Positions 1 to 11,156 of a stretch of 11,549 nt of DNA are shown here, in pieces; within the stretch, counting starts at the first letter, position 1; the number at the start of each line of letters is the position of its first letter. A model generated the notes under the pieces. It worked only from the letters and a program-made list of their open reading frames with translations, searched no databases and was not told the origin of the DNA. Made by a program: the position numbers and the translations under genes. Source of the stretch: Candidatus Hodarchaeota archaeon (GTDB lineage: Archaea > Asgardarchaeota > Heimdallarchaeia > Hodarchaeales > Hodarchaeaceae). The stretch spans positions 1 to 11,549 of the forward strand of contig JAEOTM010000106.1 in assembly GCA_016839815.1 (NCBI GenBank). The letters run 5' to 3'.

Positions 1-747
1 AATCGAGCTGGAGGGTTCCCCTTATCACCATCGATGGGTCCTGATCAAGGATTCGAAGGAGATTCAGGCAGCTTAGGTTCTATCTATATTCCAAGCCGAT
101 TTTCTGCAAACACAAGCTTTTTCGGGAAGGCAGGAATTCCCCAACCAACGTGGAGAGATCCGGAACAATTTGATACCTTTATCATCAAAACTACTTATCC
201 TCTTGATGATCCTGCTTTAGAAGATCTAACTCAGAAAATAGAAGAATTCACTAACACGGAAAATGAAGGTTATCGCAAGATTATTGGTTATAATCTTATA
301 TTGGGAACCGCTGAAACCATTTATGGACGAATTGAACAAGAACTCGAATCAATGGAGCAAATGACCAGCTTCTTACAGATATATGTGAACTTTGGCCTGA
401 TAATCGGTGCAGTCGGGATGGCGGTAATCTCTGTTAGAAATGTTGCAGAAAGGAAGCGTGAAATTGGTATGATGCGAGCAATTGGGTTCCCTCGTTTTCA
501 AGTTATGTTAGCTGCTCTCTTAGAGCTTGTAGTACTTGGATTTATCGGTTTAATCATAGGAGTGGTTAATGGTCTGTTTGTGAATGTTGGATTCGCAAAT
601 ATGATGAATGTTCCAGTTGTCATTCCTTGGGGAACAATTGGTGCATATCTTACATTCATCACTTTCATTGGATTACTTGCTGGGGCAATACCTGGATGGG
701 TAGCTAGTAGAATTCCAGCAGCTGAAGCATTGAGGTATGTCGGTTAA
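1..747 (+). CDS. ABC transporter permease, FtsX/MacB family; C-terminal part only, 5' end outside the window
   Basis: Frame is open from base 1 (NRAGGFPLSPS precedes the ATG at 34). It has the FtsX-type motif ERKREIGMMRAIG, three hydrophobic segments (YVNFGLIIGAVGMAVISV; LVVLGFIGLIIGVVNG; AYLTFITFIGLLAGAIPG) and the typical C-terminus ASRIPAAEALRY. Stop TAA at 745-747. Confidence 0.92.
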   Translation, partial: NRAGGFPLSPSMGPDQGFEGDSGSLGSIYIPSRFSANTSFFGKAGIPQPTWRDPEQFDTFIIKTTYPLDDPALEDLTQKIEEFTNTENEGYRKIIGYNLILGTAETIYGRIEQELESMEQMTSFLQIYVNFGLIIGAVGMAVISVRNVAERKREIGMMRAIGFPRFQVMLAALLELVVLGFIGLIIGVVNGLFVNVGFANMMNVPVVIPWGTIGAYLTFITFIGLLAGAIPGWVASRIPAAEALRYVG

Positions 748-757
748 GGTGAACTTT

Positions 758-1513
758 ATGGCGCAAAACGAAGTTAAATCAAAAGAAATAACCCAGAAGA
801 CATCCGATTCAGAAGTTATCTTAAGAATCGAAGGACTTCATAAACGATATAATGAAGGAAAAACCAATGAAGTTCATGCTCTAAGAGGAGTCGACTTAGA
901 AGTTCGAAAAGGTGACATGATGGCTATTATGGGGCCTTCAGGGTGCGGTAAAACAACTTTACTAAATATGATTGGACATTTAGATAAAAACTCTGGAGGT
1001 GACATCTTCATCTCGGACATTGATACAAATGACTTATCTGATGGTCAGATGACGGCATTTCGGAGAGACAACATTGGATTCATCTTTCAACTATTCAATC
1101 TCTTCCCATTTTTAACTGCAGTTGAAAATGTCGAAACTCCTCTTTTGCTTCAAGGAAACAATTCCGGTATCGCACGAGAACAGGCAAAAATGCTGTTGAG
1201 AGATCTTGGTATGGGAGATCGTCTTTATCACAGCCCATTAGAACTCTCAGGAGGCCAGCAACAGCGAGTTGCTGTAGCTCGAGCGTTAATAACTGATCCA
1301 GCTATTATATTAGGCGATGAACCTACAGGTGATTTAGATAGTACAACCAGTGCAGAGGTTATGACACTTTTCAGACGGATAAATCGAATTAATCAACAAA
1401 CATTTGTCCTCGTAACCCATAACCGCTGGATTGCTGAAAAATGCGATTATATAGTCCATATGCTAGATGGAAAAATTTCTCATGTTGAGATGGGACCATT
1501 CTTGGAGGAATAA
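758..1513 (+). CDS. ABC transporter ATP-binding protein, MacB/LolD/FtsE-like
   Basis: Walker [10 protein letters not shown]-loop GFIFQ, signature LSGGQ, Walker B/D-loop [12 protein letters not shown]-loop VTH. ATG 758 is preferred over 737 because AAGGTGA (746-752) lies 5 nt upstream of it. Confidence 0.95.
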
Positions 1514-1515
1514 CG

Positions 1516-3345
1516 ATGAAAATATACACAGCAGCTCTAATAGATAAGCCCTTACGAACAATAAATGCTGAATTACGGAAAAATTTAGCTTCTGATATGA
1601 AAAAACTACTTCAAGTGAAAAAAAGGAGTATTAATAGTCAAGAACTAAATTCATTCATCTTTCTTTCAGGAGAAAAACCAAATGGAAGTGTGCATCCAGA
1701 ATTAGTGGAAAAAATCGAGAAAGGTAATCTGTTCAAACGTTATGAATCCTATAACAAAACAAATGAAGCGAAGTTCAGACGGTTATTACTAAATAATCAA
1801 GAACTCAAGGAAACATCCCAAATTGTTAAAAATTTTATCAAAGAAATTGACGGTAGCCTCCCTAAGAAGCTAGACAGTGAATTGAAAAAGGTAAATTCTG
1901 ATTTACCGAAAATTTTCTGTGAATTAAGTAATAAAAGTTTCATTACTTTATGGGATATAGAGGAAGTCAATGAATATAGGTTTTATTTATCAGGGTTTGA
2001 TTTTCCCCTCTTTTGTGGTTCAACAGCAGAAATCCCCATTAATATCGGTGGAGTTGTTGATCAATTGCTAATAGCTAACTTTTTTGTCACATTCTTGAAG
2101 CCAACAGTCCAACGCTTAGATGAAATGAATAATGTGTTAACTAAACTTGAGGAAGAAATATCTAAACAGCATTATACAACAACTGACAAGAAGATCCAAG
2201 CAAAATTCGATCTTTTCTTGCGGATTCTAGTTGCGAAATTAAGTGCTTTACTGGAACTAGAGAATTTAATTTACCGAATCTTCAACCTGTTTGAGATTCC
2301 ACGTATGTATCTCACACAGTATAATCTCAAAAGTGATTTTGGCGACTTTAATGCCACAATATCCAGAATCTCTGAAGAGATATCTACTGGAAAAGTAAAA
2401 TTGCACGAAGTCAGTGAATTGATTCAAAAGTGTCAGCTATGCATTCGTGACTACTTGGATGACGGAGTTAATGGAGTTAAAACTATCGATTCTAAAAAAG
2501 AGTTTAAAGAAGCACTACGAACCATGGCTGAACTTAGTGTGGACCTGTTTGTTGAGGCAGAGATGCTTAAAATCTGGTCTGATTACTTTGGTTCAGATCT
2601 ACCGTTCTTCAGTTTTAATGCACAATTACTTCAAGTAGAAAAAACAGCAGCAGAAGAAATCGACAAGAATACAATCATTGCTGTACGGGGTCTCTTCAAA
2701 AATTACAATCTCGGACGCAATACTGTTTATGCTATCCGTGGGGTAAATCTTGATATCAAAGAAGGAGAATTCGTTGCAATTGTTGGATCGTCAGGTGCTG
2801 GAAAAACTACTCTTCTCAATTGTATGGCTAGTCTTGATTCACCAGATCATGGAAGCGTCTACTTTAGAGGTAAAGATCTTCATAAAATGAATGATTCTGC
2901 TAAGTCAAATGTGCGACTTAGAGAAATGGGATTTATTTTCCAAAGTTATGCACTGTTACCCCACTTTAATACTCGGGAAAATGTGGCTCTTCCAGCGGAT
3001 CTGGCCGATGGATTAAGCAAAGAAATGCGACAACGGATTGAGGATCTTCTCAAAGGTGTAGGTATTGATCAACAGGCAAAACAATTCCCAGCTCAGCTAA
3101 GTGGAGGTCAAATGCAGAGAGTAGCGATTGCTCGTGCACTTACAAATCAACCCGCAGTAATTTTCGCAGATGAACCTACTGGTGACCTCGACAGTGGAAC
3201 TGGTAAACAAGTGATGGAACTGTTGAAAAAATTTCATGAAGAAACTGGTACGACAGTTGTCATTATTACCCATGAGGAAGATATTGCTGCTTATGCAGAA
3301 AGACAAATTCTTATGGAAGACGGGATTGTCACAAGAAGAAAATAG
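1516..3345 (+). CDS. Fusion protein: ~385-aa uncharacterised soluble N-terminal domain plus C-terminal MacB/LolD-type ABC ATPase
   Basis: Single 609-aa ORF starting 2 nt after the previous stop, with GGAGGA at 1504-1509. The ATPase domain begins near residue 387 (nt ~2674) and has [29 protein letters not shown] and ITH. Confidence 0.9.
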   Translation: MKIYTAALIDKPLRTINAELRKNLASDMKKLLQVKKRSINSQELNSFIFLSGEKPNGSVHPELVEKIEKGNLFKRYESYNKTNEAKFRRLLLNNQELKETSQIVKNFIKEIDGSLPKKLDSELKKVNSDLPKIFCELSNKSFITLWDIEEVNEYRFYLSGFDFPLFCGSTAEIPINIGGVVDQLLIANFFVTFLKPTVQRLDEMNNVLTKLEEEISKQHYTTTDKKIQAKFDLFLRILVAKLSALLELENLIYRIFNLFEIPRMYLTQYNLKSDFGDFNATISRISEEISTGKVKLHEVSELIQKCQLCIRDYLDDGVNGVKTIDSKKEFKEALRTMAELSVDLFVEAEMLKIWSDYFGSDLPFFSFNAQLLQVEKTAAEEIDKNTIIAVRGLFKNYNLGRNTVYAIRGVNLDIKEGEFVAIVGSSGAGKTTLLNCMASLDSPDHGSVYFRGKDLHKMNDSAKSNVRLREMGFIFQSYALLPHFNTRENVALPADLADGLSKEMRQRIEDLLKGVGIDQQAKQFPAQLSGGQMQRVAIARALTNQPAVIFADEPTGDLDSGTGKQVMELLKKFHEETGTTVVIITHEEDIAAYAERQILMEDGIVTRRK

Positions 3346-3382
3346 ACTTTTTCTTCCCTCCCCTCTGTTTTTTTTATTTTTT
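3335..3382 (+). terminator. Putative terminator of the ABC operon
   Basis: 8-bp inverted repeat GAAGAAAA(3335-3342)/TTTTCTTC(3349-3356) around the stop codon, then a pyrimidine run and T8-A-T6 (3368-3382). Confidence 0.6.
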
Positions 3383-3468: not shown

Positions 3469-4830
3469 ATGGATGAACCAATTATTGACTTTTTAAGACA
3501 CTTAGTTGCCTTTAAATCTGTAAGTTCAGACAGAAATCAAGCAGAAAACTCTAGAAAGACTGCTGAATTTATTAAAGGAAAACTTCTAGATATTGGAATG
3601 CAGGCAGAAATTATTGAGAATGAAGACAAAAATAAGAATCCCTTTGTATTTGGGAAAATGGGAGAGGATCCGAAGAAAAAGACAATATTATTTTACTCTC
3701 ATTACGATGTTCAACCTGCAGAGATTTCAGATGGTTGGGATACTGACCCATTTGTTTTGACTCAAAAAGATGATGGATACGTATATGCCAGAGGTACCGA
3801 TGACGACAAAGGGCCGATTGCAGTGACTATTTTTGCCCTTGATGAGCTTCTCAAGGAAAACCCCAATCTTCCTGTAAATATAAGGATTTTATATGAGGGT
3901 GAAGAAGAGAGTTCCTCTGGGGGATTTGAAGACACTGTCCTCAAAAATAAAGACTATATTGGTAATGTGGATGGTATTATGATCCTTGATACTTCCTGGT
4001 TTACTGATGAACAACCGTCTTTAGACTACGGGTTCCGTGGAATTACCTATTTGGGCATAGAGATCGAGGGACCATCAAGCGATCAACATTCAGGAATGGT
4101 TGGTGGTACAATACGCGAGCCATTGATTGATCTTGTCTACTTGATGTCACGGTTTGTTGATTTAGAGGGAAGAGTACTAGTAAAAGGTTTTTATGATAAG
4201 GTTAAACCATTAACTGAGGATGAAGCTCAGCTCTATGAGAATCTAGAATTTTCACTACAGGAATACAAGGATGCTATTGGCATTTCCAAGGTATTAAAAG
4301 AAGATGCAAAGCAAACTTTGATGGCTATGTGGCGTAATCCGTGTTTATCTATTCATGGAGTTGAGGGTGCATTTTCAGGATCTGGAGGAAAAACTGTTGT
4401 TCCTGGAAAAGTGATTGGAAAAGTGAGTATGCGTTTAGTTCCCGATCAAGACCCTGAGGAAATCTCTCAACTTTTTATCAAACATGTCCAAACTGAATTT
4501 ATGAAATTAAATTCTCCTAATAAGTTAACAGTCTCTCCCTTGGGTAATGGAGAATGGTGGTTAGGTGATGTGAATAACTTCCTTTTCAAGTCAGGAAAAA
4601 AAGCACTGCAACAATACTGGAAAATTGAACCCTCTTTTGCCCGTTCAGGGGGTTCTATTCCCATTATTCCATTTATGGAAAAGACCTTCAACGCACCAGC
4701 AATTGGTGTGGGGATTGGCCAGCCTTCAGATGGAGCTCATGGGCAAAATGAACGCATTCGGATCAAAAATCTGATTGGAGGAAAGGAAGTAATCAAACTG
4801 ATGCTGCAAAATATTGCTGAAGTTGAATAG
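3469..4830 (+). CDS. M20 family metallo-dipeptidase, CNDP2/Dug1-like
   Basis: Metal/catalytic motifs HYDVQPA, RGTDDDKGP, EGEEE, QHSG, GGSIP and DGAHGQNE; AAGAGG upstream at 3455-3460. Confidence 0.92.
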   Translation: MDEPIIDFLRHLVAFKSVSSDRNQAENSRKTAEFIKGKLLDIGMQAEIIENEDKNKNPFVFGKMGEDPKKKTILFYSHYDVQPAEISDGWDTDPFVLTQKDDGYVYARGTDDDKGPIAVTIFALDELLKENPNLPVNIRILYEGEEESSSGGFEDTVLKNKDYIGNVDGIMILDTSWFTDEQPSLDYGFRGITYLGIEIEGPSSDQHSGMVGGTIREPLIDLVYLMSRFVDLEGRVLVKGFYDKVKPLTEDEAQLYENLEFSLQEYKDAIGISKVLKEDAKQTLMAMWRNPCLSIHGVEGAFSGSGGKTVVPGKVIGKVSMRLVPDQDPEEISQLFIKHVQTEFMKLNSPNKLTVSPLGNGEWWLGDVNNFLFKSGKKALQQYWKIEPSFARSGGSIPIIPFMEKTFNAPAIGVGIGQPSDGAHGQNERIRIKNLIGGKEVIKLMLQNIAEVE

Positions 4831-5647: not shown

Positions 5648-7570
5648 TTATTTTTCTTTATATCGAGGGTTTAGGCGATAAAAAGATTCCTCTGTAAACT
5701 CCCAAGTAAGAATAATTATACCTCCTTCGCTTTCCATAGAAGCATTAGTTGCTAAACCACTTTCTGCGAAATCTTTAAGCAGATGAATAGCAGCAGCATT
5801 CCCCATGATTGTTTCTGTTATAAAACGGTTAATGTTTAATTCTAACGCACGTTTAGTCAGATAACGGAGAAATTCTCTTGCTAGACCTTTGTTGCGAAAG
5901 TCCTCATGAACGAGTAAAGAAATTTCTGCAGTTTTAAAATCGTGAAGAATGAAAAAATGACCTGTTCCTATAATATTTTCTTTTGAAATCGGACCTAAAA
6001 ATGCAGCAATTCCCATATCCTGACTAAAGTTAATGTTGGCTTCTTTTTGAGCTAAGCTATGAGGTAGTGCTCGTATCGCACTAAAATAACGTGAATATCT
6101 ACTTTTTTCGGAAACGGAATAAAAGAATCTTCGAAGTTTATCTTCGTCACTGGCAAGTATAGGTCGAATTCGAACAGTTGGTCCTCCATCTCTTAAGGTA
6201 AAGTGTTCCTGAACTTCCATAGGGTACATTAAATGTTTCGAAGGATCACTGTAAATCTGATCTTGATACATGTAATTTAGGTCTTTTGCTCTTTTGAATA
6301 GTTCTTCTCTGAATTTAGGATGGGCTAATTCTATCATAGAAAGAACTCGCTCTCTGAGAGAGGCCCCGTGAAGATAAGCAATCCCGTATTCTGTTACAAC
6401 ATATTCGATATCTGCTCTCGTGATTGCTACCCCTGCTCCTGGACAGAGATGTGATACAATTCGTGAATGATTCCCATCACTAGAAGTTGAGGGCAAAGCG
6501 ATAATCGTTTTCCCTCCTGGGGATAATTGTGCTCCACGATGTAAATCAACAGCTCCACCAATACCACTGTACAAATATGAACCTAAGCTATCAGCCGCTA
6601 CTTGACCAGTTAAATCAATTTCGAGAGCAGAATTAATAGTAACCATTTTATAATTTTTAGCAACAATATTTGGATCCAAAACATAGTCTGATGGATAAAA
6701 GTGAAAATCTGGATTGTCATTAACAGTTGAATACAAGCGTTGAGTACCCATCGCAAATGCAGCAACAGTTTTCCCTTGATGAATCGTTTTCTTCGAATTT
6801 GTAACAACACCACAATCTAAAAGTTCTAATACCGAATCAGTGATAAGTTCCGAATGTATTCCCAAGTCTTTTTTTTCACAGAGATATTTTCCCATCGCAC
6901 TAGTGACATTTCCAACCCCAATTTGTAATGTAGATTCATCATCAATTAAGCTGACAACATTTCTAGCGACTTTTTCGATTTGCGGTGTAATAGAGGGTGG
7001 TTTCCATTCCGTCAAGGGACTCCTGTTTTGAACCATATAATCAATATTTGAGATGTGAATGAAGCTATTTCCATGAGTAACGGGCATTTCTGGATTCACT
7101 TCTGCAATCACAATTGTGGAATTTTCCACGGCTGCTTTGGTTAGATCAACACTAATTCCTAAGCTAACATAACCAGATTTATCAGGAACAGATGTTTGAA
7201 TTAATGCAACATCAATTGGCAATAATTTTTTACGAAATAGGTCAGGTATTTTTGCAGAAGACACAGGTGTATAATCAGCTCTTCCCTCTCTGACAGCTTG
7301 TCGTATATTACCAGTAATAAACACGCTATTATATCTAAATCTTTTTGCGTATTGTTCTTTAACATACGGGGCTGGACCATGCGAAATTACATGGTAAATT
7401 TCATTATCCTCGGTTTGAATTTCCATTTGAGAAAGATGCAATAAAAGAAGTCTAGGCTCGGCACAACCTGTCCCGATAAATATTCTATCACCTGGTTTAA
7501 TATGTGAAAGTGCAGCTGTGGGCGTAGTATAACTGGGTTTGTCAGAGCCTACTGGTTGGTACGTAAACAA
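5648..7570 (-). CDS. Acetyl-CoA hydrolase/family I CoA-transferase (4-hydroxybutyrate CoA-transferase-like) fused to a C-terminal Pat-type GNAT acetyltransferase
   Basis: Transferase motifs IKPGDRIFIG, SLGISVD, TLQIGVG, DLGIHSE (catalytic Glu241), INSALEIDLTGQV, SGIGG, VVTEYGIAYL and AHPKFR. GNAT from about residue 449: IRPILASD, SEKSRYSRYF, AEISLLVHEDFRNKGLA. TTG start. Confidence 0.92.
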   Translation of the reverse strand: MFTYQPVGSDKPSYTTPTAALSHIKPGDRIFIGTGCAEPRLLLLHLSQMEIQTEDNEIYHVISHGPAPYVKEQYAKRFRYNSVFITGNIRQAVREGRADYTPVSSAKIPDLFRKKLLPIDVALIQTSVPDKSGYVSLGISVDLTKAAVENSTIVIAEVNPEMPVTHGNSFIHISNIDYMVQNRSPLTEWKPPSITPQIEKVARNVVSLIDDESTLQIGVGNVTSAMGKYLCEKKDLGIHSELITDSVLELLDCGVVTNSKKTIHQGKTVAAFAMGTQRLYSTVNDNPDFHFYPSDYVLDPNIVAKNYKMVTINSALEIDLTGQVAADSLGSYLYSGIGGAVDLHRGAQLSPGGKTIIALPSTSSDGNHSRIVSHLCPGAGVAITRADIEYVVTEYGIAYLHGASLRERVLSMIELAHPKFREELFKRAKDLNYMYQDQIYSDPSKHLMYPMEVQEHFTLRDGGPTVRIRPILASDEDKLRRFFYSVSEKSRYSRYFSAIRALPHSLAQKEANINFSQDMGIAAFLGPISKENIIGTGHFFILHDFKTAEISLLVHEDFRNKGLAREFLRYLTKRALELNINRFITETIMGNAAAIHLLKDFAESGLATNASMESEGGIIILTWEFTEESFYRLNPRYKEK

Positions 7571-8040: not shown

Positions 8041-11010
8041 ATGAGTAACAGTAATGTAAAACCTGATTTTATCAAACAAAAGCTTAAAGGAAGAATTAAA
8101 GGCGAGATAGCAGTAGATGAAATAAGTCGGTACTTCTATTCGACCGATGCAAGTGTCTATCGTATTATGCCGACAGCAGTTGTATTTCCAAAGGATAAGG
8201 AAGATGTCAAGGAAGTAGTCAAATTCGCTAAGCAACATGGGATCTCGATACATGCTCGTGGCGCTGGTTCAGGATTGGGTGGGGCAAGTCTGGGACCTGG
8301 AATAATTCTTGCATTTCGACGGTATATGAATGAAATCATCGAAATAAATGAAAAGAACTCAACTACAATAGTTCAACCAGGGGTAATCTGTGGAATTCTT
8401 AATCAGAAACTCGCTAAGATAGGAAAAATATTATACGTTGATAATAGCTCTGAAAATTATGCCTCCATAGGCGGAATGATAGGGACTAATTCTTCGGGAG
8501 CGCATGCAGTAAAATATGGGTATATGGCCGATTTCGTGCAAGAATTAACCGTTATCTTGAGTAATGGAGAAGAGATTCAGGCAAGACCTGTTGAAATAGG
8601 TTCAACTGAATATAATGAAATAATTTCAAGAGATACGCTAGAAGCGAAGCTGTATCAATTCACAGTTGATTTAGTTAACAATCCTGATACTCAATCACTA
8701 ATATCTGATCATTGGCCCAAAGTTAAAATGAATGTAAGCGGGTATAATCTCAAGGATGTTATTAAAGATAATAAAATTGACTTATCACGATTATTTTTAG
8801 GTTCAGAAGGTACTTTAGGCATCGTAGTCGAGGCCAAGATTAAATATATACCTAAACCTAAGCAAATGACTCTTGTGGTCATGGATTTTGATTCCTTAGC
8901 AAAATCAGGACGAGCTGTTGATTTATTGGTCAATAAAGTAGGAGTTGCTGCGATCGAACAATTGGGTAAATCTGTACTTGAAATTGCTGTTGATATGAAT
9001 CCAGCACTAAAAGAATTCATACCTACGGGAGTAGACAATATACTTTACGTTGAGTTCGACGATGCTGATCCGGCAGTTCGAGCAGAGAAAGTTAAGAAAG
9101 CACGAGAATTGATAATTGACCAAGAACATTTAGCCTCCGATATGCGCTTCTCTGATGATCCTGTAGAGCAAGCTAGCCTATGGAAAGTACGAAAAGATGC
9201 AGTTCCACTTCTCAATAAAGTACGAGAACCTCGTCGTATCATGGCATTCGTTGAGGATCAGACAGTGCCTCTTGATCAATTAGGAAACTACATGGTTCAT
9301 CTTCGTGAAGAAGTATTTCCGAAATATGGACTACGAGCCGCAATTTATGGGCATGCAGCCAAAGGACTTGTTCACACTCGTCCATTCGTTAATACAAAAG
9401 ATGGTGGTGACCTCGAATTAATAAAAAAGGTTGCAGATGAAGTGAATTCATACGTTATTGGTATTGGTGGCGCAATTTCCGGAGAACATAACGATGGATT
9501 AGATAGAGTCAATTATATCAAGCAAATGTATGGTGAAGCGGTTTACGAGAAATTTAGAGAGTTAAAAGAAATTTATGATCCTGATGTAACCTTTAACCCA
9601 GATAATAAGATTACTGATAAAGAAGATCTTTTAATAAGTAATCTTCGGTTTGGAACAGAATATTCCGTCATTCCAGGTTTAGAGAAGAATCTAGTTTGGG
9701 ATGATAAGTGGGGCTTTGAGGAAGTAATTGAATCCTGTCACGGATGTGGAAAATGCACAGTTGACCTTTTACCTCAGCGTGATTGTCCGATTTACCGTGC
9801 TAAACAAACAACGACGGGTGAACTTGCTTCTCCACGCGCTCGGGCAAATCTGATGCGAGGTATAATCTCTGGGCAATTAGATTACAACATATTCTATTCC
9901 AGAGAAGCCCGACAGGTTCTGGAGGACTGTGCAGGATGTATGATGTGTAATATTGATTGTCCTTCAACAGTGAATATTCCCAAAGTGATGTTTGATGCAA
10001 AGATTATGCATTATGGAGGATCTAAATGGCCCTTTATTGGTAAAATCCCCAGAGGCCATTTCTTTACAGGGAATTACGAAATGATCGCAAAAGTAGGTAG
10101 TGCTTTTTCCCCATTAACAAATATTGGACTTTGGGGACCCAACAAGTACTTAATGCAAATTTTTGGTGGTGTTCATCACAAGGCCAACTTCCCTAACTTT
10201 AAACGGAATACTTTTCAGAAGTGGTTCAAAAAACATTCAAAGAATAATCCTACGCCGACCAATCCCACCAAAAAGGTAGCGATCTTCCATGGATGCTTTG
10301 CTAATTATACGGAAAATCGGGATATTGCTGTTGCTCATGTTCAGGTCTTAGAAAAGAATGGAATTGAAGTGGTTGTACCCAAAGGTCAGAACTGTTGTGG
10401 TATCCCTATGCTTTCGAATGGTCTGGGTCATATCGCTAAAAAGAAAGGAGAAAAAAATACACGAATCTTTGCGGAATATGTAAAGCAAGGGTATGATGTG
10501 GTTACTCAATGCAGTTCCTGCTATGCCACGTTGAAAGATGAATTACATGAAACATTAGTGGGAAATGAAGAATCGAAGCTTGTGAAAGATAATACCTACT
10601 TATTTACTGATTATATTCTGAAATTAAAAGACGAAGGCAAGCTGAATACTGACTTTAATGGAAACATGAAGAAAGGTTTACGCCTAGGTTATCACGAACC
10701 TTGTCACCTTATCAGCAGTGGTATCAAGGGAACATCTGTAAAAATGCTACAAAGCTTAGGTACAGTCAATGTTGAACCCCTTAAGACAGAATGTTGCGGA
10801 CAATTAGGTAGCTGGGGTTTTAAAACTAAGAATTACAAATACGGCCAAATAATTGCCGAAAGATCACTGTATCCTGAAGCAAAACGTGATGATATTGATG
10901 CTCTAGTTACAGATTGTCCTACCTGCAAATTACAACTTCAAAATGTGAATAAGGAGATCTATCATCCCACACAAGTTCTTCGCGATGCTTATGGTTTAGA
11001 TCGAACATAA
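8041..11010 (+). CDS. FAD-linked, Fe-S and CCG-domain oxidoreductase (fused GlcD-GlcF/YdiJ type); probable D-2-hydroxy-acid (D-lactate/glycolate/D-2-hydroxyglutarate) dehydrogenase
   Basis: FAD motifs RGAGSGLGG and GSEGTLGIV; active-site WKVR, GHAAKGLVH (H438, H445) and GEH (E482, H483); ferredoxin motifs CHGCGKC..CP (from C566) and CAGCMMCNIDCP (from C630); two CCG domains (HGC..CCG..CSSC; HEPCH..CCG..CPTC). Confidence 0.92.
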   Translation: MSNSNVKPDFIKQKLKGRIKGEIAVDEISRYFYSTDASVYRIMPTAVVFPKDKEDVKEVVKFAKQHGISIHARGAGSGLGGASLGPGIILAFRRYMNEIIEINEKNSTTIVQPGVICGILNQKLAKIGKILYVDNSSENYASIGGMIGTNSSGAHAVKYGYMADFVQELTVILSNGEEIQARPVEIGSTEYNEIISRDTLEAKLYQFTVDLVNNPDTQSLISDHWPKVKMNVSGYNLKDVIKDNKIDLSRLFLGSEGTLGIVVEAKIKYIPKPKQMTLVVMDFDSLAKSGRAVDLLVNKVGVAAIEQLGKSVLEIAVDMNPALKEFIPTGVDNILYVEFDDADPAVRAEKVKKARELIIDQEHLASDMRFSDDPVEQASLWKVRKDAVPLLNKVREPRRIMAFVEDQTVPLDQLGNYMVHLREEVFPKYGLRAAIYGHAAKGLVHTRPFVNTKDGGDLELIKKVADEVNSYVIGIGGAISGEHNDGLDRVNYIKQMYGEAVYEKFRELKEIYDPDVTFNPDNKITDKEDLLISNLRFGTEYSVIPGLEKNLVWDDKWGFEEVIESCHGCGKCTVDLLPQRDCPIYRAKQTTTGELASPRARANLMRGIISGQLDYNIFYSREARQVLEDCAGCMMCNIDCPSTVNIPKVMFDAKIMHYGGSKWPFIGKIPRGHFFTGNYEMIAKVGSAFSPLTNIGLWGPNKYLMQIFGGVHHKANFPNFKRNTFQKWFKKHSKNNPTPTNPTKKVAIFHGCFANYTENRDIAVAHVQVLEKNGIEVVVPKGQNCCGIPMLSNGLGHIAKKKGEKNTRIFAEYVKQGYDVVTQCSSCYATLKDELHETLVGNEESKLVKDNTYLFTDYILKLKDEGKLNTDFNGNMKKGLRLGYHEPCHLISSGIKGTSVKMLQSLGTVNVEPLKTECCGQLGSWGFKTKNYKYGQIIAERSLYPEAKRDDIDALVTDCPTCKLQLQNVNKEIYHPTQVLRDAYGLDRT

Positions 11011-11066: not shown

Positions 11067-11156
11067 AGTTATTCTTATCCTTGTGTTTACGTCTGATTCC
11101 TCCTAACCATACAACTATTCCAACAAACCCTAAAAGTGGGAATAAAGGATCGATTG

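Follow-up and report, generated by a model that had tools for sequence, protein, structure and literature searches.

ABC (ATP-binding cassette) systems of type VII, such as MacB, LolCDE, FtsEX, YbbAP and BceAB, are seen as machines driven by a pair of identical plain ATPases, and nearly all studies of them concern bacteria. The described systems that come closest to the one reported here are YbbAP(-TesA) of Escherichia coli and BceAB of Bacillus, with which it shares an ATPase of the MacB/LolD family and a single permease chain that carries two FtsX modules. The window that we analysed is one entire contig of 11,549 nucleotides (JAEOTM010000106.1) from the 4.2 Mb genome, 89.5% complete, of a Candidatus Hodarchaeota archaeon. 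In YbbAP and BceAB, a single plain ATPase is present as a pair, whereas the system described here has two different ATPase genes, one of them encoding a 385-residue N-terminal domain, called the orphan domain in what follows, in front of the nucleotide-binding domain (NBD). The permease of the new system differs also in having two large extracytoplasmic domains, and it is found in archaea, whose cells have no envelope of the bacterial type. The ATPases of MacB, LolCDE and FtsEX, together with MJ0796 and Spr0694, are the nearest sequence relatives of residues 387–606 of the long ATPase, and none of them has an N-terminal cytoplasmic domain before the NBD.

Extra domains on the ATPase are likewise found in MetN (C2/ACT-like), ModC and MalK (TOBE-type) and OpuA (CBS), the one in MetN being ferredoxin-like, a comparison drawn from general knowledge and used as a working analogy. 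However, those are small C-terminal domains of known families, with two copies in each transporter, whereas the orphan domain is N-terminal, single-copy as far as gene order indicates, 370 residues long, of a different fold and without a match to any of them. There is also a link to the PadR-associated duplicated FtsX permeases (ADOP), as the C-terminus of our permease matches the ADOP model and genes for PadR and HAAS/RDD proteins stand before orthologous operons. To our knowledge, ADOP permeases have no adjacent ATPase gene.

Residues 1 to about 370 of the long ATPase are a genuine conserved cytoplasmic accessory domain of an undescribed family. No Pfam or NCBIfam family matched residues 1–385, and among PDB sequences nothing better than E = 0.86 was retrieved. 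Scanning 28 orthologues against Pfam at E ≤ 10 gave only scattered chance matches, for example a Tc3 helix-turn-helix in 10 and DUF2096_N in 4 of them. At the level of structure, a Foldseek search of the domain model against the PDB gave no match below E = 0.1, an exhaustive PDB alignment was at noise level, the ESM Atlas shape search did not exceed a template modelling score of 0.34, and its feature search gave no usable match. Thus, taken as a whole, the domain resembles no described family and no solved structure in the searches run. The sequence-only reading of this DNA had proposed an unrecognised domain fused in front of a MacB/LolD-type ATPase, which the Pfam, NCBIfam and PDB searches bear out; a confident match to a described ABC accessory domain appeared in none of the Pfam, NCBIfam, PDB, Foldseek and Atlas searches. 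NCBI records name the homologues plainly as ABC transporter ATP-binding proteins, our literature searches found no paper describing the domain, and the available part of PMC11237479, which deals with the HAAS-PadR dyad, makes no mention of a domain on the ATPase. A degenerate second NBD, as in tandem ABC ATPases, was rejected: aligning the domain to the short-ATPase NBD alignment with hhalign gave a probability of 0.4% over 11 columns. There is one Walker A copy per long-ATPase protein.

A fusion of this kind might also arise by stop-codon loss, frameshift or misassembly joining two separate genes, and the two parts are indeed split in five of 80 loci from independent assemblies. The other 75 carry one intact fused gene, and these include the complete chromosomes CP070695 and CP122380, so that homologues are far from being always encoded by two genes. 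Each split case shows damage: one locus (L081) has a 1-nucleotide frameshift in the linker, three (L083, L085 and L086) have genes broken at several places, and the last (L079) has a palindromic misjoin inside the NBD. None of the five looks like a natural two-gene form. The palindrome in L079, from a Bathyarchaeota metagenome-assembled genome, is perfect over about 70 nucleotides (7170–7240) of the NBD coding region. It introduces what looks like an in-frame stop, and a misjoin during assembly is its most likely origin. A word-indexed search with the N-terminal region returned 496 homologues, nearly all of 600–660 residues and bearing an NBD. A filter-free search with a hidden Markov model against 1.84 billion cluster representatives found 71, of which every full-length one (585–904 residues) was fused to an NBD and the others were fragment-like; no full-length free-standing orphan domain was found among these representatives. 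Taken together, the intact loci, the complete chromosomes, the fused representatives and the damage at the split loci refute the artefact explanation, to which we leave virtually no chance.

The AlphaFold2 model of the domain, computed from a 28-sequence alignment, has a mean predicted local distance difference test (pLDDT) of 88.7 and a predicted template modelling score (pTM) of 0.85, and the full-length long ATPase gives 83.4 and 0.72, respectively. In the model, the alpha/beta part takes a ferredoxin-like arrangement and is followed by an intramolecular bundle of four long helices (Table 1). The linker falls below a pLDDT of 50 at residues 372–386 in the domain-alone model, and only at 372–378 in the full-length model. 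Much of this had been anticipated from the letters alone. The beta-like segments picked out there coincide with AlphaFold2 strands (KIYTAAL, 2–8; FIFLSGE, 47–53; ITLWD, 143–148; EYRFYL, 153–158), the two heptad-patterned stretches lie within helices 177–215 and 278–314, and the overall order, alpha/beta and then a helical bundle, is that of the model. The region had also been described as long and soluble with no clear transmembrane helix, and we find none: the highest 19-residue Kyte-Doolittle mean is 1.54 (residues 173–191), within a long soluble helix. On the other hand, the loose comparison with CorA made there is not supported by the defining features of CorA, as the protein has neither the GMN motif nor the two C-terminal transmembrane helices.

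Identity of the orphan domain is 48–88% within the orthologous group of about 500 proteins. When distant paralogues (15–37% identity) are included in a superfamily alignment, N45 is the sole invariant residue, with F47, Y79, W146, D182, F189, R254, R311 and D361 near-invariant; W354, F358 and P363 are invariant in orthologues. Scored by structural element, conservation is highest in the b1-a1 loop (IDKPL), in the b2-b3 turn (N45) and in the C-terminal motif ahead of the linker. The two loops top the superfamily alignment, and the motif at residues 354–368 was one of two stretches selected as the most conserved for pattern building. Judging from the usual fold topology and the order of secondary-structure elements, the b1-a1 loop and the b2-b3 turn would lie on the same edge of the sheet, at which ligands or metals are usually bound in ferredoxin-like, palm and ACT domains. 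A catalytic palm of the GGDEF, class III cyclase or Cas10 kind was rejected, the domain having no GG[DE][DE]F motif, no conserved acids and no Pfam match; since the acidic pair of a catalytic palm varies, the domain is unlikely to be an enzyme. In paralogue comparisons, the domain is 22–28% identical and the NBD 49–58%, that is, the domain diverges about twice as fast, which fits a specificity-bearing module.

The second part of the finding concerns the machine to which the domain belongs. Residues 387–606 of the long ATPase form a complete NBD (Pfam ABC_tran, 1.2e-35). Against NCBIfam, it matches LolD (8.6e-66), YbbA (3.1e-61) and MacB (4.3e-60), all under the equivalog cut-offs (scores of 221.6 against 307.75 for LolD and of 203.7 against 966 for MacB). 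The nearest solved sequences are Spr0694 (5xu1, 2.7e-59), MJ0796, MacB, YbbA (6.5e-53), LolD and BceA (6.5e-49). Walker A, Q-loop, LSGGQ signature, Walker B with the catalytic glutamate and H-loop (ITHE) are all present and invariant in 26 orthologues. The short ATPase (ABC_tran, 1.8e-32; LolD, 8.9e-65) has a readable Walker A, Q-loop, signature, Walker B glutamate and H-loop as well; both NBDs retain the whole set of catalytic motifs, and we take the long ATPase to be catalytically competent. The two NBDs are 40% identical. In a tree they group by type, with a weakly resolved split and a support of 73/92 for the short clade; clustering as strong was obtained in 0 of 500 shuffles.

Every locus of sufficient length in the 80-locus set has the permease first, then the short NBD and then the long NBD. 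Full-length orthologous permeases have 1115–1290 residues, two FtsX matches plus MacB_PCD, about 10–11 hydrophobic segments and extracytoplasmic domains of about 280 and 365 residues, and the plain ATPase that accompanies the long one has about 250 residues. Both FtsX stretches were read in orthologous permeases of 1119–1265 residues. In our window, the permease fragment matches Pfam FtsX (6.6e-18) and positions 657–802/803 of the NCBIfam ADOP duplicated permease (1.3e-12). The three genes are closely spaced, with only 2 nucleotides between the TAA of the short ATPase and the ATG of the long one, whose N-terminus, MKIYTAALIDKP, agrees with the conserved start in about 120 listed homologues. 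From the gene order, we infer a complex of one double-FtsX permease, one plain ATPase and one domain-bearing ATPase, that is, with a single copy of the orphan domain. As the long ATPase gene always comes with a double-FtsX permease and a plain ATPase, we conclude that the domain marks an undescribed asymmetric subtype of the type VII (MacB/FtsX-class) ABC machine. The proposal of a new transporter subtype had been made from the sequence alone, and the recurrence of the fusion with a double-FtsX permease and two different ATPases upholds it. Mechanotransmission is probably the mode of action, to judge from the family.

Three further operons with a short and then a long ATPase (613–649 residues) are present in the source genome, on contigs C144, C83 and C10 (loci L002, L003 and L004), and the open frame upstream of each of these ATPase pairs is consistent with a permease. 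Their orphan domains are 24–26% identical to the studied one, and their NBDs about 51%. The layouts of L002 and L003 are near-identical. Distant paralogues in other Heimdall-group Asgard archaea come with the same three genes, in one case in a different order. On a Kariarchaeaceae contig, a paralogous operon has a gene for an Arf/Ras/Roc-type small GTPase (L088:1445-2002) about 2 kb upstream. The operon of a Hodarchaeales relative, with a domain identity of 82%, reads PadR, RDD/HAAS membrane protein, permease, NBD and long NBD, and bathyarchaeial operons start with PadR alone. Our contig begins inside the permease gene, past the place where such regulators would stand.

What the domain does for this machine is a matter of competing explanations. 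We think that the best one, with a probability of roughly 40%, is that of a cis-acting regulatory or sensor module gating closure of the ATPase pair. A signal from the cytoplasm, be it a small ligand or the surface of a partner, would reach the ferredoxin-like part at the edge that the b1-a1 loop forms with the b2-b3 turn. The resulting state would then be relayed by the four-helix stalk and the C-terminal motif to the NBD through a disordered linker of 7–15 residues, and the relay would gate the ATP-driven closure of the ATPase pair and hence the mechanical cycle of the permease. The regulatory domains on the MetN, ModC, MalK and OpuA ATPases provide the analogy, as in them a cytoplasmic signal gates the NBD dimer. 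Coupling of the domain to the NBD is suggested because the linker is short, the junction motif is conserved and the full-length pTM lies above the value of about 0.55–0.6 roughly estimated for independently placed domains. Several points count against gating. Of the acids expected in a catalytic palm, position 10 is D, N, E or A across the superfamily alignment, and E43 is not kept in paralogues; few residues are invariant in the superfamily, and their role may be structural alone; conserved residues were assigned to places on the fold from secondary-structure order; and the single-copy asymmetric arrangement would fit docking or bracing equally well. Co-folding of the domain with the short ATPase scored 0.14 and 0.10, where the mark was 0.32 and controls were not run, and says nothing either way.

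A possible role, although clearly less probable to us than gating, is that of a docking platform or signalling hub, in which the domain recruits a cytoplasmic protein and the state of the transporter is reported to gene regulation, in the manner of BceAB and BceS. The candidate partners would be the PadR regulator of the operon, the HAAS-RDD membrane protein and a protein with a coiled coil and a winged helix. The position of PadR and RDD/HAAS at the head of the operons just described speaks for it, as does the proposal, in PMC11237479, of HAAS-PadR as a signalling dyad linked to FtsX/MacB permeases; yet neither PadR nor HAAS is encoded within 8 kb of two distant paralogous operons that carry the domain. 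As to the third candidate, the long ATPases of a sister subclade (904–941 residues) bear a C-terminal coiled coil and a weak TrmB/MarR-like winged helix, and the source genome encodes a free-standing homologue of this tail, 45% identical (C126:16442-17368; locus L089:1474-2403). However, this tail extends the NBD at its C-terminus and is not joined to the orphan domain. The free-standing protein is present in 20 of the 21 sampled genomes of the same genus and, among the sampled Asgard genomes, in the source's own genus only, so that its co-occurrence with the domain amounts to a single evolutionary event. With this query it was not found in 301 Bathyarchaeia, 18 of which carry the orphan domain. 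Therefore, the coiled-coil/winged-helix protein is a lineage-specific addition and not a core partner, and the idea of an obligate partner is not supported. The free-standing gene adjoins a macro-domain gene, and genomes with a tail-fused ATPase also retain a free copy of the protein.

The domain might instead be a structural brace that orients the ATPase pair on the asymmetric permease and may block cross-pairing of paralogues, without any sensing. One domain copy per complex is exactly what would be expected of such a brace, the four paralogous operons of the genome have domains that diverged much further than their NBDs, and the conserved residues are mostly aromatic or charged ones at helix ends, as core or junction positions would be. 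Nevertheless, Bathyarchaeia are mostly single-copy and their domain is still 48–52% identical to that of Asgard archaea, a strong constraint for a mere spacer. Moreover, YbbAP, with its single-chain double-FtsX permease, works with a plain ATPase homodimer according to PMC12646458, and from general knowledge the same applies to BceAB. Hence we consider a pure brace rather unlikely. An adaptor that binds cargo or a carrier on the cytoplasmic side is less likely still, and in our opinion improbable. Cargo-recognising domains on ATPases have precedents in general knowledge, namely the carbohydrate-binding domain of the Wzt ATPase and, in ABC transporters for type 1 secretion, the C39-like domains, and the orphan domain does diverge with each paralogous system. 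On the other hand, no likeness to a known binding domain was found with Pfam, Foldseek or the orthologue scans, and the characterised type VII ABC systems, as described in PMC12646458, act on membrane or extracellular substrates and not from the cytoplasm. Beyond gating of the ATPase pair, which we prefer, one may speculate, with the odds clearly against it, that the domain is a new fold making the machine a two-way signalling device. As a single cytoplasmic sensor or hub on one of the two ATPases, it would connect the mechanical cycle of the giant extracellular permease with transcription factors or with a ligand in the cytoplasm. The transcription factors would be PadR/HAAS, plus the winged-helix protein in the Asgard lineage, and the whole would be an archaeal counterpart of transporter-based sensing made of previously undescribed parts.

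Concerning its distribution, the orthologue was found in 18 of the 21 sampled genomes of the source's own Asgard genus and in 18 of 301 sampled Bathyarchaeia. In the remaining 280 Asgard genomes of the sample there were just three weak matches, taken as paralogues. The titles of the homologue records name Hodarchaeota, Heimdallarchaeota and Bathyarchaeota, with some Thor-, Hermod- and Odinarchaeota. The short ATPase is 73–87% identical between Hodarchaeales-type Asgard archaea and Bathyarchaeia (loci L008-L068), with very short branches in the NBD tree. As the short ATPase is near-identical, the operon patchy in both groups and the branches short, transfer of the whole operon between phyla appears likely. 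An intact operon was also seen in a metagenome-assembled genome labelled Candidatus Sulfotelmatobacter (Acidobacteriota; DATGZD010000012.1), and its neighbours (CBS-domain proteins, a deaminase and an acetolactate decarboxylase) are uninformative as to whether a bacterium carries it or the contig was mis-binned.

Table 1. Features of the operon and of the long ATPase in the window (positions are those of the contig; residues are those of the long ATPase).
Feature	Residues	Position	Strand	Basis or remark
3' end of permease gene, C-terminal FtsX module of double-FtsX permease		1..747	+	last 248 codons; contig begins within gene
Short plain MacB/LolD-type ATPase, 258 residues		737..1513	+	overlap with permease stop of 11 nucleotides
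GGAGGA, Shine-Dalgarno-like motif		1504..1509	+	6 nucleotides before ATG of long ATPase; TAA of short ATPase at 1511-1513
Long ATPase gene, 609 residues, orphan N-terminal domain plus NBD		1516..3345	+	open reading frame
Predicted ferredoxin-like alpha/beta subdomain	1-170	1516..2025	+	AlphaFold2 model
b1	2-8			AlphaFold2 model
a1	14-32			AlphaFold2 model
b2-b3 hairpin	39-53			AlphaFold2 model
Helical insertion, about 80 residues	61-140			AlphaFold2 model
b4-b6	143-169			AlphaFold2 model
Four long helices, predicted intramolecular bundle	177-359 (177-215, 225-257, 278-314, 335-359)	2044..2592	+	AlphaFold2 model
C-terminal motif W-x-D-x-F-G-x-D-[ILV]-P-x-F, NBD junction	354-368	2575..2619	+	conservation
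Poorly conserved linker	369-386	2620..2673	+	low pLDDT
NBD of long ATPase, MacB/LolD-type	387-609	2674..3342	+	consensus catalytic motifs
T-rich stretch after stop codon of long ATPase		3348..3382	+	T8 at 3368-3375, T6 at 3377-3382

T-runs serve as archaeal terminators, and the T-rich stretch behind the long ATPase is the probable end of the operon. Directly downstream of the long ATPase lies a gene for an M20 family peptidase without a signal peptide (3469–4830). It was rejected as a member of the system, as it adjoins the operon in the closest relatives only (L007-L009 and L017) and stands beyond the T-rich stretch; an M28/M20 peptidase also adjoins a distant paralogous operon (L087). The remainder of the window holds a reverse-strand gene (5648–7570) for a 640-residue acetyl-CoA hydrolase/transferase, with N- and C-terminal domains, fused to a C-terminal GNAT acetyltransferase domain. 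It is followed, on the forward strand, by a gene (8041–11010) for a single chain of 989 residues that combines an FAD-linked oxidase (FAD_binding_4 and FAD-oxidase_C) with a 4Fe-4S dicluster domain and with two cysteine-rich domains of the CCG type. A gene for an Lrp/AsnC regulator begins after this chain, at 11136.

To the usual picture of type VII systems, this family adds a conserved alternative with two different ATPases, one of which bears a large domain for which the searches returned neither a known family nor a solved structure. Its hosts are Hodarchaeales-type Asgard archaea, which are regarded as close relatives of eukaryotes, and Bathyarchaeia of sediments. The near-identity of the operon across two archaeal phyla suggests the transfer of a useful module between them. 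We think that the orphan domain is sharply enough delimited to found a new Pfam family and to be taken up in structural studies. Should it indeed gate the ATPase cycle or report on it, a new handle on the cytoplasmic control of type VII machines would be at hand.

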